64,000 nt of DNA from Rhodospirillales bacterium (GTDB lineage: Bacteria > Pseudomonadota > Alphaproteobacteria > BOG-932 > Roseiterribacteraceae). Under the pieces are notes generated by a model. That model saw only the letters and a program-made list of their open reading frames with translations. It made no database searches and was not told the origin of the DNA. The translations under genes were made by a program, and so were the position numbers. Below, one piece after another: positions 3,522 to 31,169 of the stretch (position 1 is the first letter of the stretch; every line of letters begins with the position of its first letter). The stretch is taken from the NCBI GenBank assembly GCA_028291365.1, contig JAQGIE010000088.1:3000-66999 (forward strand), written 5' to 3'.

Positions 3522-3540
3522 CGGGCGCTGCCAACAAGAA

Positions 3541-3574
3541 ACGGCGCGGATCTCCGTCCGCGCCGTTTTTGTTT
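3541..3574 (+). terminator. rho-independent terminator
   Basis: Perfect 10-bp stem ACGGCGCGGA / TCCGCGCCGT (3541-3550 and 3557-3566) with a 6-nt loop, followed by TTTTTGTTT. It sits 20 nt after the lipoprotein stop codon. Confidence 0.65.
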
Positions 3575-3663
3575 GACTGCCGCGTCGTTGCCGCCACGGC
3601 CATGGATCGGCCCTCGCGAATCACGCATCGTTGCCGGATTGGGGACTCGATCGTGAGGCGACC

Positions 3664-4572
3664 ATGGCGACGTTCGACCGGCTGACCGATGCCGAGTGGG
3701 AGCTGATCGCGTTGTTCTTCCCGGCGCCGCAGGACCGGAAACAGTTCGGGCCGGTGATCGACAATCGGGTCGTGGTCGATGCGTTGCTGTGGCTGACCGC
3801 GACCGGCACGAGGTGGCGCCGCCTGCCCGCCTCGCGCGGCAATGGCGACGCCATCCGCCGCCGCGTCCGGCGCTGGGTCGAAGACGGGGTGTTCGACCGG
3901 CTCGCCGCGCGCCTCGACGCGCTCGCGCTGGGCGCTGCCACCGCCGACCTGCTGCGCCGAACCCTGGCGCGCGAGGACCTGCATGCGGACGATGACGCGG
4001 TCCGCGCGGACGAGCCACTGTCCGCACCAATGTCCGTAGAACGTCCGCAGACGTCCGCGCCACCGTCCGCGGACCGTGGCGGCGATGTGCTGCCGACGTC
4101 CGCACCAACGTCCGCAGCCACCTCACTGTCCGCAGCATCGTCCGCGGACCCAGCGGCGCAACGTCCGCACCCGACGTCCGCACGTCCGCGCCCAACGTCC
4201 GCGGACGTTGGCGGCGACGCCGCCTGGGTCGAGCTTTCGACCGGGGCCAAGGGTAAATCGATCAGCCTCAAGGGCGGCGGTGCGCTGACCAACGCGACGA
4301 CCTGGCTCAAGAACCTGCCGCCGACGATGCTGCCCTATTTCTCGGGCCTGGCGATGGTCCCGCTGATGATCTGGCTGTGGTCGTGGAGCCTGACCGAGGT
4401 CGGCCCCAAACTCGACTTCCTCGCCGACCGCCTCGGCATCAGCCGCGCCATTCCCGCCGCCGTGTTCACGGTGGCGGTGCTCGCCGGCACGGTGTGGGTG
4501 CTGCTGCTGACGCACCGGATGACCCGCGTGCGGGTGTGCCCCCATTGCGGGGAGCCGGTGCGGGGGCTGTGA
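3664..4572 (+). CDS. membrane protein: IS5-type transposase N-terminal (DUF4096-like) domain, TSA/Pro-rich linker, C-terminal TM segments and CPHCG motif
   Basis: ORF 3631..4572; likely start at MATFDRLTDAEWELIALFFP.
- Residues 1-90 (LTDAEWELI...DNRVVVDALLWLTATGTRWRRLP...RRRVRRWVEDGVFDRL) follow the pattern of the DUF4096 domain of IS5/IS1182-type transposase ORFA.
- No DDE catalytic part follows.
- The C-terminus has hydrophobic stretches (MLPYFSGLAMVPLMIWLWSWSL; AIPAAVFTVAVLAGTVWVLLL) and ends with VCPHCGEP. Confidence 0.6.
   Translation: MATFDRLTDAEWELIALFFPAPQDRKQFGPVIDNRVVVDALLWLTATGTRWRRLPASRGNGDAIRRRVRRWVEDGVFDRLAARLDALALGAATADLLRRTLAREDLHADDDAVRADEPLSAPMSVERPQTSAPPSADRGGDVLPTSAPTSAATSLSAASSADPAAQRPHPTSARPRPTSADVGGDAAWVELSTGAKGKSISLKGGGALTNATTWLKNLPPTMLPYFSGLAMVPLMIWLWSWSLTEVGPKLDFLADRLGISRAIPAAVFTVAVLAGTVWVLLLTHRMTRVRVCPHCGEPVRGL
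3985..4210. repeat. dense array of the hexamer GTCCGC (about 14 plus-strand copies, several as GTCCGCGGAC palindromes) inside the CDS
   Basis: Read directly from the sequence. GTCCGC starts at 4000, 4020, 4043, 4053, 4065, 4098, 4110, 4128, 4140, 4163, 4176, 4183 and 4197, with a GTCCGT variant at 4032. Reverse-strand copies (GCGGAC) occur at 3985, 4069, 4144 and 4201. A 16-bp perfect palindrome AACGTCCGCGGACGTT spans 4194-4209. Confidence 0.85.
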
Positions 4573-4916
4573 GCGCGGCGCGCATCGTCGTCTACGTCGC
4601 CGCGATGATGTGCGTCGTCAGTCGCCGCATGTCGGAAAGCAGCGCGCGCAATTGCGGCCACGGTTCTTGTTCAATGTCGAGTCCGGGCTGGAGCTGCAGC
4701 AGCGTTGCTTCGCGCTTCGCAGGCGCCTTCGATCGTCGCAGCCGGCAGGCGACCGCCGTTGTCGGGCAACGCTCGCCGCGATCGCGCAGGTGATGCACCG
4801 GATCCGCCGCTGCTTCCTTCCGAGGCACGAGCTGACCGCCCCCGCCTGAGACTTCCGCGCCCCTCCCTCGTTCCCCGAACGACCGCCCCACCGTCGGCCG
4901 CGCAGCGAGGATCCCC

Positions 4917-6638
4917 ATGCCCGAAACCGCCGCCCATTACATCGCCGCCATGTTGGAACAGGCCGGGGTGCAGCGCATCTACGGCGTTGTCGGCGATTCG
5001 CTGAACGGCTTGACCGAGGCGCTGCGCAAGCGCGGCAAGATCGCGTGGATACATGTGCGCCACGAAGAGTCGGCCGCCTTCGCGGCGGGCGCCGAAGCGC
5101 AGCTCACCGGGCAGCTCGCCGTCTGCGCCGGCAGTTGCGGGCCGGGCAATCTGCATCTGATCAACGGCCTCTATGACTGCCATCGCAGCGGGGCGCCGGT
5201 GCTCGCCATCGCCGCTCATATTCCGTCGACCGAGATCGGCGTCGATTATTTCCAGGCGACCCATCCGGAATTCCTGTTCAAGGAATGCAGCCACTATGTC
5301 GAGCTGGTCTCGAACCCCACGCTGCTGCCGCAGATCCTCGAACGCGCCATGCGCACCGCGATCGCCAGGCGCGGCGTCGCGGTCGTCGTCATTCCCGGCG
5401 ACGTGGCGCTGAAGCCGCTCGCAAAAGACCCGCCGAGCTGGCTCGCGCCCCAAGCGCCGACGGTGCGGCCGGGCGACGCCGGGCTGCACAAACTCGCCGG
5501 CGTCCTCAACGAGTCCAGCCGCATCACCATGATGTGCGGCGCCGGCTGCGCCGGGGCGCATGACGAGATCATCACGCTGGCAGCGCGCCTGAAGGCGCCG
5601 ATCGTGCACACGCTGCGCGGCAAGGATCATGTCGAATACGACAACCCCTACGATGTCGGCATGACTGGCCTGATCGGCGTCGCGTCGGGCTACGCCGCGA
5701 TGAAGGAATGCGACACGCTGCTGCTGCTCGGCACCGATTTTCCCTACCGGCAATTCTATCCCGAACACGCCTTCGTGGCGCAGATCGACCTGCGCGCCGA
5801 AGCGCTGGGCAATCGCTGCCATCTCGGTCTCGGCCTGCTCGGCGACGTCAAGACGACCCTGCAGGCGCTGGATCCGCTGCTCGTCGACAAAAGCGACCGC
5901 TTCCATCTCGACGCGGCGCTGGCGCATTACGCCGAGGCGCGGCGCGATCTCGACGCGCTGGCCGAAGTGCGCGCGGGCAGCACCATCATTCACCCGCAGC
6001 AGCTGACCAAGCTGGTGAGCGATCTCGCCGACGACGACGCGGTGTTCACCTGCGATGTCGGCACGCCGACCGTGTGGGCGGCGCGCTATCTGAAAATGAA
6101 CGGCAAGCGGCGGCTGCTGGGCTCGTTCAACCACGGCTCGATGGCCAACGCGATGCTGCAGGCGCTGGGCGCGCAGGCGGCGTTTCCCGAGCGCCAAATC
6201 GTGTCGCTGTCAGGCGACGGCGGCTTCACCATGATGATGGGCGACTTCATCACGCTGAGCCAACTGGCTTTGCCGGTGAAAGTCGTGGTGCTGAACAACG
6301 GCACGCTGGGCTTCGTCGAAATGGAGATGAAGGCCAACGGCTTTCTCGACACTGGCTGCGAGCTGATCAATCCCAACTTCGCCGCCATGGCCGAAGCGAT
6401 GGGCATCAAGGGCATTCGCGTCGAGCATCCCGGTGACGTGCAAGCGGCGCTCGAACAGGCCTTCGCCCATGACGGGCCGGTGCTGGTCGATGTCGTCAGC
6501 GCGCGCCAGGAACTCGCCATGCCGCCGCAGAAGACGCTCGAGCAGGCGGCGAATTTCGGCATGTTCATGGTCAAGGCGGTGATGAACGGCCGCCTCGACC
6601 AGCTGGTCGACCTCGCCAAGGTGCAGCTGCGCCGGTGA
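4917..6638 (+). CDS. poxB: pyruvate dehydrogenase (quinone) / pyruvate oxidase, thiamine-diphosphate and FAD dependent
   Basis: The 573-aa ORF is collinear with E. coli PoxB along its whole length. Shared stretches include [89 protein letters not shown] and the C-terminal lipid-activated tail ending in LAKVQLRR. Confidence 0.95.
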
Positions 6639-6795
6639 AGGCCGCGCCGGCGTTGGACGGGGCGCCGCACTTCGAGAGCAGCGCCGGGCAAGCGGGCAGC
6701 GACGGCGGAACGACGATGGGCGACAGCTCGGCTTGCAACCGGCATGGCGGCTTGGTGCTGGCCGCGATGCCGGCCGAGCGCTACCGTACGCGCCC

Positions 6796-7470
6796 ATGAA
6801 CCACGTCCGCGTCGACGCATCGCTGCAGGCCATCGTCGCGGGCAGCGTCGACACGATCGCCTTCGTCGGTCTCTACGGCCTGTTCACGGCGCACATTACC
6901 GGCAACTTCGTGCTGATCGGCGCCGCCATCGCGCATCCGCAGCTGGGCGTCATCGCCAAGCTCGCCGCCTTGCCGATGTTCATGCTGGCGGCCGCCACGA
7001 CCAACCTGTTTCTCGCCTGGCGCGTCAAGGGCGGCCACGATCCCGCGCGCGGCGTGTTCGCGGTCGAAGCGGTGCTGCTGGCCGCGTTCATGGCAGTCGC
7101 CCTGTGGTGCGGTCCGTTCACCAGCGGCGACCAGCCGCTCGCGATTCTCGCCGGCTTGTTCGGCGTCAGCGCCATGGCGGTGCAGAACGCCGCCTCGCGC
7201 AGCATTTTCAGCGCGCTGCCGCCGACCACGGTGATGACCGGCAACGTGACCCAGATCGTGCTCGACCTGGTCGAGTTGCGCCGCGGCGGCGCGCCTGCCG
7301 CAGACGCCGCGGCCCGGGCTCGTATTGCCAAGATGCTGCCCGCGGTGCTTGCCTTTGCCGCCGGCGCCATCGCCGGCGGCCTGGGCTACGCCTTGATCGG
7401 CTTCGCCGCGCTGGCGCTGCCGATTGTCGCGACACTTGCGCTTCTGGTGCTGCACAAGCAGGCGAGCTGA
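6796..7470 (+). CDS. DUF1275 (YoaK-like) family membrane protein
   Basis: ORF 6733..7470. It has hydrophobic helices and the signature VDTIAFVGLYGLFTAHITGNFVLIG. The start could be ATG 6796 or TTG 6733. Confidence 0.75.
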   Translation: MNHVRVDASLQAIVAGSVDTIAFVGLYGLFTAHITGNFVLIGAAIAHPQLGVIAKLAALPMFMLAAATTNLFLAWRVKGGHDPARGVFAVEAVLLAAFMAVALWCGPFTSGDQPLAILAGLFGVSAMAVQNAASRSIFSALPPTTVMTGNVTQIVLDLVELRRGGAPAADAAARARIAKMLPAVLAFAAGAIAGGLGYALIGFAALALPIVATLALLVLHKQAS

Positions 7471-29351: not shown

Positions 29352-29747
29352 ATGAAATACATGCTGATGATGAATCACGCGGGGAAAGCCGCCTACCCGA
29401 TCTTCAATTGGCCCCAGGAAGACATCAAAGCGCATATCGGCTTCATGATCGGTCTCAACAAGAAGCTGCGCGAAGCGGGCGAGCTGGTGTCGTGCGAAGG
29501 CCTGTCCGGGCCCGACCAGGCCAAGTCGGTGCGCGCCACGTCGAACGGCACGCCGGTCACCGACGGCGTCTTTCCCGAAGCCAAGGAATTCCTCGCCGGC
29601 TACTGGATCGTCGACGTCGAGTCGCCGGAACGCGCCTACCAGATTGCCGCCCAAGCCTCGGCCGCGCCGGGTGTCGGCGGCAAGCCGCTGAACATGGCGA
29701 TCGAAGTGCGCGAAGTGATGAGCGGCCCGCCACCCGAGTTTCTGTGA
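29352..29747 (+). CDS. YCII-related (DGPF) domain protein
   Basis: ATG after AAGGAG. It starts MKYMLMMNHAG and contains ...DGVFPEAKEFLAGYWIVDVESPERAYQIAAQ..., typical of YCII proteins that precede this class of sigma-factor gene. Confidence 0.8.
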   Translation: MKYMLMMNHAGKAAYPIFNWPQEDIKAHIGFMIGLNKKLREAGELVSCEGLSGPDQAKSVRATSNGTPVTDGVFPEAKEFLAGYWIVDVESPERAYQIAAQASAAPGVGGKPLNMAIEVREVMSGPPPEFL

Positions 29748-29758
29748 GTCGCACCTGT

Positions 29759-29894
29759 CGTCGTCCCTGCGCAAGCCGTCGTCCCTGCGCAAGCAGGGAC
29801 CCAGGAGCTTCCGCGTTGGAACTGCTGCAATTCCAAGCGCTACCACCCCGCATCAAGTGCGGGGCAGGCTCTGGATCCCTGCGTTCGCAGGGAT
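29759..29894. repeat. cluster of REP-like palindromic units
   Basis: Three elements are visible.
- Tandem 18-mer CGTCGTCCCTGCGCAAGC x2 (29759-29794), closing into the hairpin GTCCCTGC-gcaa-GCAGGGAC (29781-29800).
- Hairpin CCCCGCA-tcaag-TGCGGGG (29846-29864).
- Hairpin ATCCCTGC-gttc-GCAGGGAT (29875-29894). Confidence 0.65.
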
Positions 29895-29906
29895 GACGAG
29901 CAGGGC

Positions 29907-31169
29907 ATGACGGCGAGCGGCGGCGGCACCAGCATCGAGTCCCTGCTGCGCACCCTCGCGCCGCAGGTGCTCGGCGCCGTGGTCCGGCAGTTTCGCGGCG
30001 ACTTCGCGTCGGCGGAAGACGCGGTGCAGGAGGCGCTGGTGGCGGCGTCGCTGCAATGGCCGCAACAAGGCGTGCCGGATCATCCGCGCGGCTGGCTGAT
30101 CCAGGTCGCACGACGGCGCAGGACCGATCATGCGCGCAGCGAACAGGCGCGCACACGCCGCGAGGCCGAGATCGCGATCGAGTACGGCCAGGTCGTGCCG
30201 CCGCCCGATCTCGACGCCTTGCCCGGCGAGGACGACACGCTGCTGCTGCTGTTCATGTCGTGTCATCCGGCGCTGACGCCGGCATCGGCGATCGCGCTCA
30301 CCTTGCGCGCGGTCGGCGGCCTCACGACGGCTGCAATCGCCAACGCGTTTCTGGTGCCTGAAGCGACCATGGCGCAGCGCATCAGCCGCGCCAAACAGCG
30401 CATCAAAGCCTCCGGCGTGCCGTTCAGCCTGCCCGACCGCGACGAGCGTGCCGAGCGGCTGAGCGCGGTGCTGCACGTGCTCTACCTGATCTTCAACGAA
30501 GGCTACACGAGCAGCGCCGGCGAGGCGCTGCAGCGCGTCGACCTGGCGCAGGAAGCGATCCGCCTGACCCGCGCCGTGCATCGGCTGGTGCCCGACAACG
30601 CCGAAGTTGCGGGGCTGCTGGCGCTGATGCTGCTGACCGATGCGCGTCGCGACGCGCGCAGCGGTCCCGACGGCGAGGTGATTCCGCTGACCGAGCAGGA
30701 TCGCGCGCGGTGGGATGCCGCGCTGATCGAAGAAGGCGTCGCGCTGCTCGGTGCGGCCTTGGCAAAAGGCGAGGTCGGCCCGTACCAGCTGCAGGCCGCC
30801 GTCGCCGCTTTGCATGACGAAGCCGCGACCTACGACGACACTGACTGGCCGCAGATTCTGGCGCTGTACGGGCTGCTCGAACAGATGCAGCGCGGCAACC
30901 CGATGGTGTCGCTCAACCGCGCCATCGCGGTCGCGATGGTCGAAGGCCCGCAAGCGGGACTCGCGCTGGTCGATGCGCTCGACGTCGAGGGCAAGCTCGC
31001 CGGTCATTTCCGCCTCGACGCGGTGCGCGGCCATCTGTTCGAACTGTCGAACGATCCCGACGCCGCGATCGCCTGCTACGTCGCAGCGGCGGGGAAAACC
31101 GCCAACACCGCCGAACGCGATTACCTCGTCACGCGCGCGGCGCGGCTGCGCGAGCGCGGCGGCGGCTGA
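29907..31169 (+). CDS. ECF-like sigma-70 family RNA polymerase sigma factor with long C-terminal extension
   Basis: 420 aa. Region 2 is AEDAVQEALVAASLQWP...PRGWLIQVARRRRTD. Region 4 is AIANAFLVPEATMAQRISRAKQRI. A roughly 230-aa TPR-like tail follows, as is usual for the YCII-linked sigma class. Confidence 0.85.
   Translation: MTASGGGTSIESLLRTLAPQVLGAVVRQFRGDFASAEDAVQEALVAASLQWPQQGVPDHPRGWLIQVARRRRTDHARSEQARTRREAEIAIEYGQVVPPPDLDALPGEDDTLLLLFMSCHPALTPASAIALTLRAVGGLTTAAIANAFLVPEATMAQRISRAKQRIKASGVPFSLPDRDERAERLSAVLHVLYLIFNEGYTSSAGEALQRVDLAQEAIRLTRAVHRLVPDNAEVAGLLALMLLTDARRDARSGPDGEVIPLTEQDRARWDAALIEEGVALLGAALAKGEVGPYQLQAAVAALHDEAATYDDTDWPQILALYGLLEQMQRGNPMVSLNRAIAVAMVEGPQAGLALVDALDVEGKLAGHFRLDAVRGHLFELSNDPDAAIACYVAAAGKTANTAERDYLVTRAARLRERGGG

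Follow-up and report, generated by a model that had tools for sequence, protein, structure and literature searches.

A DUF4096 protein with a predicted membrane hairpin and an array of GTCCGC sites in the DNA that encodes its linker

The gene described here lies in a stretch of 64,000 nucleotides (the window) of a soil metagenome-assembled genome, G000 (4.37 Mb in 271 contigs, 66.5% GC, 100% complete). It raises the question of why the N-terminal domain of a transposase should stand in one reading frame with a low-complexity linker and a predicted membrane hairpin, and of what the array of short sites in the linker-coding DNA is for. The gene encodes a protein, P0001, that begins with an ATG at 3664, preceded by GAGG at 3655-3658, and ends with a TGA at 4570-4572; no sigma-70-like promoter was found upstream of the gene and no terminator 3′ of it. 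The features of the locus and of the related arrays elsewhere in the genome are collected in Table 1.

The first-pass annotation had read the beginning of this protein as the N-terminal (DUF4096) domain of a transposase, and this reading was borne out. Residues 7-80 match DUF4096 (PF13340) over profile positions 1-75 of 76 (E 4e-19, 69.1 bits, with a Pfam gathering score of 34.3 bits), and this is the sole Pfam family above cut-off in the protein. In an AlphaFold2 model built with a 70-sequence alignment, the folded domain reaches approximately residue 105 (nucleotide 3978); residues 1-105 have a pLDDT of ~95 and form helices at 9-18, 34-47, 61-73, 76-86 and 91-102, the one at 61-73 being basic. 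A search of the PDB with Foldseek returned no match to the structure below E 1, and no solved relative. We presume that DUF4096 binds DNA from the place that the domain has in IS5 transposases. The absence of a DDE catalytic region and of inverted repeats, also proposed earlier, was confirmed: the protein covers only positions 4-84 of the 258 of the NCBIfam IS5-transposase equivalog (NF033580; 66.3 bits, cut-off 110 bits), and the other reading frames downstream of the DUF4096 domain gave no Pfam match and no remnant of a DDE domain, for which the families PF01609 and PF13586 were sought. Additionally, the flanks of the gene contain no terminal inverted repeats and no target duplication, also when compared with the empty site in the sister species G001.

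The domain is fused in one frame to the Thr/Ser/Ala/Pro-rich linker that had been described, for which the model gives a pLDDT below 50 at residues 110-205, and the linker is followed by helices at 207-226, 231-257 and 262-287. Of the hydrophobic helices claimed for this part, those at 231-257 and 262-287 are present in the model, but only the second contains a segment (265-283) that exceeds the cut-off of 1.6 in Kyte-Doolittle hydropathy (19-mers), whereas two segments exceed it in each of the three paralogues. Lys/Arg-rich segments precede the first helix of the hairpin and follow the second, and these flanks fit a predicted N-in/C-in hairpin that would leave the HTH on the cytoplasmic side. 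The loop of the hairpin would have at most ~19 residues and the tail, in the model, has 15. The terminal CPHCG motif is indeed there, but it is a lone CxxC and is not common to the paralogues. The suggestion of a “one-component-like” protein is not supported: P0001 lacks a sensor domain, and the loop predicted to lie outside is limited to those ~19 residues.

Table 1. Features of the window locus and of related arrays in the same genome (positions in the window unless a contig is named)
Feature	Position	Strand	Evidence or remark
Terminator hairpin of upstream lipoprotein gene, GCGGAT-N5-GTCCGC	3540..3569	+	Conserved in sister species; left edge of lineage-specific segment
Segment of ~1.0 kb (gene and short flanks) absent from G001	3570..4592	+	~12-22 bp between same flanks in G001; no TIR or TSD
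P0001 gene, 302 aa: DUF4096 domain, disordered linker, two-helix membrane hairpin (predicted)	3664..4572	+	ORF translation, Pfam, AlphaFold2
DUF4096 (PF13340) HTH domain, residues 7-80	3682..3903	+	Pfam
Array, 13 GTCCGC and 5 GCGGAC hexamers (n=18, 222 bp)	3985..4206	both	Hexamer count
Disordered Thr/Ser/Ala/Pro-rich linker, residues 110-205 (~95 residues)	3991..4278	+	AlphaFold2 pLDDT below 50
Perfect 20-bp palindrome CCAACGTCCGCGGACGTTGG	4192..4211	both	Inverted-repeat search
Helix 231-257, putative TM1, Trp-rich, moderately hydrophobic	4354..4434	+	AlphaFold2; below Kyte-Doolittle cut-off 1.6
Helix 262-287, TM2 (predicted)	4447..4524	+	AlphaFold2; Kyte-Doolittle 2.25 at 265-283
CPHCG, residues 292-296, single CxxC, in tail (cytoplasmic by predicted topology)	4537..4551	+	Sequence; sub-threshold zinc-ribbon matches only
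Remnant, 77% similar to 3′ end of longer G001 gene	4593..4747	-	G001 synteny ends here
Array variant of window gene, ACGTCCGC			9 copies
Array variant of C69 gene, (C)ACGTCCCG (CACGTCCCG)			9 copies
Array variant of C203 gene, CCATGTCC(G/C)G, i.e. CATGTCC(G/C)G (CATGTCCSG)			7-10 copies
Array variant of C234 gene, CCGGCGAC/GTCGCCGG			6-9 copies
Stand-alone array C247, CTGTCCGC type	C247:430-700		18 copies; between convergent genes
Stand-alone arrays C148 and C188	C148:1-70; C188:1-111		Both at contig starts
Stand-alone array C14, CGTCCCG type (the C69 variant)	C14:26130-26360		6-7 copies; upstream of cupin gene

A conserved C-terminal part, for which the first-pass annotation had asked, was not found for P0001 itself, whose C-terminal part is an orphan with no detectable homologue. 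Searches of 5.8 billion clustered proteins with the full-length protein and with residues 195-302 recovered only P0001 itself and no homologue beyond DUF4096. Among the 150 matches listed by HMMER for 1.84 billion representatives, none was to the C-terminal part, and the only one outside the N-domain was a low-complexity match to the linker (P0008). The same fusion does exist elsewhere, as proposed. Genome G000 contains exactly four DUF4096 domains, and all four stand in proteins that combine the domain (52-62 bits in the paralogues) with a low-complexity linker and two hydrophobic helices. Relatives of two of the copies, those on contigs C69 and C203 (56-61% identical to each other), were found in public data as P0153 and P0154, and in them the membrane hairpin is conserved. 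With the same architecture in the four genes and in two database proteins, the fusion is, as judged from the sequences, not one by chance.

The array in the linker-coding DNA is the main feature of the locus, and not a side point. As the genome-wide frequency of the hexamer is 0.8 per kb, 0.18 copies are expected in this stretch, against the 18 observed (Poisson P 4e-30), and in 500 dinucleotide-preserving shuffles the observed motif count was never reached for any of the four DUF4096 genes. Neighbouring hexamers in the window lie 4-29 bp apart, 12-14 bp being the commonest spacing, and share the 10-bp consensus CA(a/c)(C/T)GTCCGC(G/A)(G/C), while the copies that read GCGGAC either belong to palindromes or stand where the array begins. 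The 16-bp core of the perfect palindrome, AACGTCCGCGGACGTT, has an exact copy in the C148 array and a near-identical one, CACGTCCGCGGACGTT, on C188; its one match in IMG/VR, in an AT-rich phage, was put down to chance. We consider the GTCCGC sites to be the putative cognate binding sites of P0001 itself.

The base composition of the linker agrees in position with the array. At codon positions 1/2/3, the N-domain has GC fractions of.75/.51/.91 and the C-terminal part has.64/.52/.95, whereas the linker, measured over nucleotides 330-600 of the ORF (3994-4263 of the window), has.71/.71/.72; the flat profile means that the coding signature of both flanking domains (GC3>GC2) is lost exactly at the motif array.

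Each of the four genes has an array of its own variant, and the comparison of the C69 and C203 copies indicates what has been kept in them. Their linkers share 41% amino-acid identity and 57-61% DNA identity, and in their alignment the GTCC cores are conserved in position in 10 of 17 cases, versus 22 of 274 for the remaining 4-mers taken together. Just 5′ of the core, the two arrays differ in concert, with C in C69 and T in C203 (CACGTCCCG versus CATGTCC(G/C)G), and a homologous 20-bp palindrome is changed in both arms (CCACGTCCCGCGGGACGTGG in C69 versus CCATGTCCGGCGGGACATGG in C203). A dimeric binder that co-evolves with its sites would be expected to produce such a concerted change of the flanks, although gene conversion could be an alternative explanation for a concerted change across copies. 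The dN/dS between both genes amounts to 0.24 for the N-domain, 0.61 for the linker and 0.56 for the C-terminal part, and the first value points to purifying selection on the N-domain of the paralogues. The fourth paralogue differs in its motif and is also divergent in its putative recognition helix.

Arrays are also found away from these genes. When the whole genome was searched for at least five copies of [ACT][CT]GTCC[CG][CG] within 200 bp, motif clusters were found in seven places, namely the three paralogue linkers of GTCC type and four stand-alone arrays of matching type. The latter represent three or four loci, as C148 and C188 may be one locus that was split by the assembly. Their contexts are mixed (between convergent genes or in a divergent promoter region), so that no single regulatory logic emerges from them.

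The best reading of these observations, to which we give about even confidence, is that P0001 is a sequence-specific DNA binder tethered to the inner membrane, with putative cognate sites written into the DNA of its own linker. The nearest formal precedent for sites placed within the gene of their binder is phage lambda gene O with the iterons of ori-lambda, described below. The reading is weakened by the mixed contexts of the stand-alone arrays, by the orphan C-terminal part of P0001 and by the moderate hydrophobicity of its first predicted membrane helix. Binding of the motif by the HTH, insertion into the membrane and its topology, tethering and feedback are all steps that we infer. The ancestor of the DNA-binding domain would be the HTH at the N-terminus of an IS5-family transposase, the catalytic domain being absent. 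It is known that the nascent N-terminal domain of IS transposases has a preference for binding in cis; similarly, the HTH of P0001 would be translated first and bind the nearby array. The C-terminal hairpin would enter the membrane, leaving both termini in the cytoplasm, and array-bearing DNA (the gene itself and the stand-alone arrays of C247 and C148/C188) would be kept at the membrane on a flexible leash. Both the hairpin and the leash of ~95 residues point to a possible role in the tethering or clustering of such DNA. Additionally, occupancy of the array inside the ORF may block elongating RNA polymerase, which would establish a negative feedback. If each paralogue recognises its own motif variant, the result would be a series of orthogonal protein/array pairs; and, if each array consists of cognate sites of its own product, each gene would be a compact “binder plus cis-site” cassette. 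A wider proposal, which we put forward tentatively and hold to be rather doubtful, is that these genes form a new class of self-contained cassettes, each joining a membrane-leashed HTH of transposase origin to a centromere-like array in its own linker DNA, with orthogonal specificities that arise through concerted change and satellite arrays that hold loci at the membrane, as a bacterial counterpart of the centromere or lamina tethers that derive from transposases, CENP-B among them.

Several known systems resemble parts of this arrangement. RacA and Noc are membrane-associated chromosome binders of Bacillus subtilis; Noc, which is ParB-like, attaches to NBS sites and brings DNA to the membrane. 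The mode proposed for P0001 is the same, since a site-specific binder would bring defined DNA sites to the membrane; however, Noc uses an amphipathic helix, CTP-dependent spreading and dispersed single palindromes, whereas P0001 has an unrelated fold, a predicted integral hairpin, a long disordered leash and dense arrays, and no ParB N-terminal CTPase domain or ParB-type HTH was found in it with Pfam and NCBIfam. ToxR, CadC and TcpP likewise tether a cytoplasmic N-terminal DNA-binding domain to the inner membrane, but through a single membrane helix, with an OmpR-type winged helix and a periplasmic sensor domain. P0001 has none of the three, and no winged helix of this type (Trans_reg_C) scored above the Pfam cut-off. 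Type II and Ib partition systems (parC/ParR of R1 and stbDR/StbA of R388) have ~10 short repeats spaced about one helical turn apart and a small cooperative binder encoded alongside. Their centromeres, whose site variants set specificity, resemble the present arrays in joining short repeats with a co-encoded binder (a putative one in P0001) and in having such variants, but they are intergenic, bound by soluble RHH or HTH proteins and served by a motor partner, whereas no ParM or ParA gene adjoins that of P0001. Finally, the eukaryotic Myb-like proteins of PIF/Harbinger transposons and their domesticated derivatives are comparable as transposon modules that act on repeated short motifs and are reused without catalysis. 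We found no paper on DUF4096 that describes such an arrangement, and we are not aware of any account of DUF4096 proteins anchored in the membrane, or of site arrays that differ between paralogues in the linker DNA of bacterial chromosomal genes. The ingredients each have precedents; their combination appears to be new, but it is confined to a very narrow lineage.

The main rival explanation is that P0001 is a non-catalytic remnant or accessory protein (OrfA-like) of an unusual IS5-derived mobile element, in which case the arrays would be multi-copy transposase-binding sites of the kind that form subterminal repeats in Harbinger, Ac or Mu, the solo arrays would be MITE-like, and the catalytic protein would act in trans or have been lost or left unassembled. 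We regard this explanation as unlikely, but part of the comparison with the sister species G001 (99% complete, 3 contigs) agrees with it. That genome has no DUF4096 match and no GTCCGC array, and the gene of the window belongs to the segment of ~1 kb that is present in one species and absent from the other at a break of synteny, while the flanks of the locus are kept, with the terminator hairpin as well as the 3′ end of a convergent gene. The counterparts of the C247 and C14 loci in G001 have no arrays, and the C69 and C203 genes are missing too. The array pattern was found in no other searched genome of the family either, and genes and arrays are present in this lineage only. The position of the paralogues near contig ends, the layout of the C14 array (three forward copies, then three or four reverse), a remnant of an IS5 DDE domain (~60 residues, C111:7887-8057) and the terminal repeat of an IS5 element in a relative, which contains GTCCG, would likewise suit a mobile element. 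We considered an imperfect direct repeat of 24 bp (3542-3565 and 4576-4599, 75% identical) as a target duplication and rejected it because its left copy does not adjoin the insert and because equally good matches are frequent in the GC-rich DNA of this region.

The distribution of the family in databases, which is patchy and rare, can be read in the same sense. Neither the 11 genomes of the order nor 400 genomes of the class yielded the family of the C69 and C203 copies; genome, metagenome and viral contigs gave unrelated DUF4096 or IS loci or nothing, and plasmids gave none. In related genomes, the DUF4096 matches whose motifs can be recognised belong to ordinary IS5 transposases or are N-terminal parts of OrfA type (G049, an unpublished genome on which no other result here depends, contributes two of these loci, L006 and L021). 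The family is very rare, being represented by one soil lineage and two database proteins, and such extreme rarity would also fit a transient selfish element; as a consequence, the family may be a short-lived selfish invention. Against a mobile element, the arrays are internal to the gene rather than terminal, and the 100%-complete assembly has no intact IS5-type DDE domain (PF01609 or PF13586). P0001 shares the domain PF13340 with the N-domain of IS5 transposases (OrfA-type), but it differs from them in having a predicted membrane anchor, putative sites inside its gene, and no DDE region, frameshift site or terminal repeats. Moreover, the anchor is conserved in four family members, whereas an accessory to transposition needs none, and the ORFs are intact, with the selection on the N-domain described above.

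It is less likely again that the arrays serve another factor or DNA-level process, or are selfish repeats, which the disordered linker merely tolerates while the HTH binds elsewhere. This would explain the stand-alone arrays without an adjacent DUF4096 gene. It would also be in line with the presence in this genome of other inverted arrays of short motifs, such as the CACCAAG elements, and with the inverted CGTCCGC triplets that the relative G013 has in the DNA coding for the tail of a large ORF without DUF4096. However, an array is found in all four DUF4096 genes and in no further gene of the 4.37-Mb genome; the C69 and C203 arrays are orthologous and have diverged together with their genes; the fourth paralogue pairs its different motif with a divergent putative recognition helix; and related genomes are without both the genes and the arrays. 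A role of the arrays as an RNA element was also considered. Their RNA folding (z = -3.75 in the window and -2.2 in C69) fits the presence of palindromes and is too weak to favour such a role, which was rejected.

Variation among strains helps to distinguish a motif kept as DNA from one kept as peptide. The lineage is present in the public sequencing runs X1-X4, and no RNA run was listed among those that contain it. The locus is present in public soil-metagenome runs of the same study, in one of which (X1) the contig that spans the array is identical, while run X4, from another study, contains a related variant with 18 differences over 4000-4298 at a depth of 3.3; the results for single sites rest on the 13 of these 18 that are listed. 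Eleven of the listed differences are substitutions in the array. All of them are nonsynonymous (in 10 codons) and all of them spare the hexamer cores, which occupy 96 of 207 positions (P ~1e-3). New cores are seen in X4 at 4037, where T>C changes GTCCGT into GTCCGC, and at 4094, where C>G creates a GCGGAC beside a GTCCGC. Downstream of the array, the listed differences are one synonymous change and one from Leu to Val. As far as comparison of sequences goes, the data as a whole show that the linker conserves a short DNA motif and not the peptide encoded by it, and that the motif is tied to the four genes and diversifies with them.

Selection for a peptide repeat of TSAP type, with the DNA motif as a by-product, is consequently essentially excluded: despite the Thr/Ser/Ala/Pro-rich composition of the linker, the 9 of 13 forward hexamers that share one frame and read Ser-Ala, and the 12-bp tandem copies of C69 that encode a GREA-type repeat, the motif occurs in all frames (1, 3 and 9 forward copies) and on both strands, palindromes included, all of the listed array differences of X4 alter the peptide and spare the hexamers, the same motifs form intergenic arrays, and codon-position GC in the linker is flat.

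An intragenic replication origin, in which P0001 would initiate an integrated or former replicon in the manner of lambda O and the array would be its iterons, seems very improbable. The layout of ori-lambda is similar in that its iterons are placed midway within gene O, and the O protein gains residues with additional iterons (PMC7466680). Both proteins have an N-terminal DNA-binding domain and an array in mid-gene, within linker-coding DNA, although binding to the array is putative in P0001. By contrast, the soluble O protein initiates replication and has a C-terminal domain that recruits P/DnaB, an adjacent AT-rich tract and 4-6 iterons of 19 bp, while P0001 has an unrelated DUF4096 fold, a predicted membrane hairpin in place of the helicase-recruiting domain and 18 short sites. 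Furthermore, no AT-rich unwinding tract adjoins the window array, no helicase-loader partner and no Pfam match of Rep, O or Phage_rep_O type were found, and the four cassettes lie in ordinary chromosomal contexts.

If the arrays are sites for the proteins encoded around them, a disordered segment would have been used as “free” coding space and filled with cis-acting DNA signals, a point that bears on the reading of low-complexity linkers in genomes. This would also be a case of bacterial domestication of a transposase DNA-binding domain for a structural role in membrane tethering. Eukaryotes offer well-known examples of such domestication, but few have been documented from bacteria. Additionally, the paralogue variants would provide a natural, if small, series of orthogonal protein/site pairs in which to study the co-evolution of specificity and sites, and these pairs might possibly serve as tools for recruiting DNA to the membrane.

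Regarding the surroundings of the other copies, a gene of 125-136 amino acids upstream of both the C69 paralogue and the C247 array was considered as a linked partner and rejected: its family is multi-copy and occurs in G000 and G001 without arrays, and it thus has no specific link to them. The neighbouring genes give no functional clue, except that an Abi_2 gene adjoins the C203 copy.

An element, CGAATCCGGTAGCGTCGC, is common to the regions upstream of the C203, C69 and C234 paralogues, that is, the other DUF4096-linker-membrane-hairpin genes of G000, the window's own genome (C-numbers denote its contigs unless another genome is named). Between C203 and C69 it is 96% identical over 23 bp, while a looser match is found in C234 and in the window. 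It may represent a shared promoter or leader.

Downstream of the DUF4096 gene, synteny between G000 and its sister species G001 stops at the 155-bp remnant, and the poxB-like and DUF1275-like genes that lie further along the window are located elsewhere in G001 or are missing from it (see the table).

A family of small genes, coding for 125-136 aa and without any match in Pfam, is multi-copy in both species, with four copies in G000 and at least six places in G001. Approximately 100 bp upstream of these genes is also conserved, the copies being 78-85% identical to each other there. A GTCC array, one of the dense short-motif clusters that occur in the linker-coding DNA and also alone, adjoins two of the four G000 copies; none lies beside the other two or beside those of G001.

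Short-motif arrays are also observed in or beside other genes. At L043, a locus in a relative's genome (G013), a 555-aa ORF ends in a Ser/Ala/Pro-rich C-terminal tail, and in the DNA coding for this tail three copies of CGTCCGC are followed, about 60 bp on, by three of GCGGACG; this is a further example of a short inverted motif array in tail-coding DNA. As DNA, the histone H1-like repeat of C83 is a CGCAAGA array, with ACGTCCGCC inside some of its copies, and a perfect heptamer tandem is found on C171.

Other repeats were observed in G000. Outside the window, a MITE-like repeat, formed by four CACCAAG, about 150 bp and four inverted CTTGGTG, reaches around 12 copies, frequently located at contig ends, and a related element of CACCACG type is present in G001. 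The TCCCTGC/GCAGGGA cluster of the window has a REP-element-like appearance, and comparable clusters of GCGGGGA and GCAGGGA occur on C34, C40 and C268.

The remnant on C111 is the sole IS5-type DDE trace in the G000 assembly. Among public metagenome proteins, P0002, P0003, P0005 and P0006 consist of three to five tandem DUF4096 domains and nothing more; they are a further use of DUF4096 without the catalytic domain.

Location of the features described in the text
Feature	Location	Remarks
CGAATCCGGTAGCGTCGC	C203; C69; C234	~85; ~45; ~50 bp 5′ of start codon
155-bp remnant	window 4593-4747	77% identity to 3′ end of longer G001 gene
poxB-like gene	window 4917-6638	
DUF1275-like gene	window 6733-7470	
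Small-gene family	C69:34565-34975; C247:3-377; C137:32139-32372; C151:2980-3375	
CGTCCGC/GCGGACG array	L043:1490-1620 (G013:C221)	other family, same class
Lys/Arg/Ala-rich repeat, histone H1-like (ARKTS type)	C83:6350-6800	C-terminal part of gene
GTTCCGT heptamer, six perfect tandem copies	C171:19390-19431	immediately 3′ of gene's stop codon
CACCAAG MITE-like family	C32:250-460; C39; C66; C67; C69:13201; C115; C216; C240; C254; C255	
TCCCTGC/GCAGGGA heptamer cluster	window ~29650-30050 (C261:32650-33050)	both orientations; intergenic
IS5-type transposase remnant	C111:7887-8057	~60 residues, C-terminal DDE part
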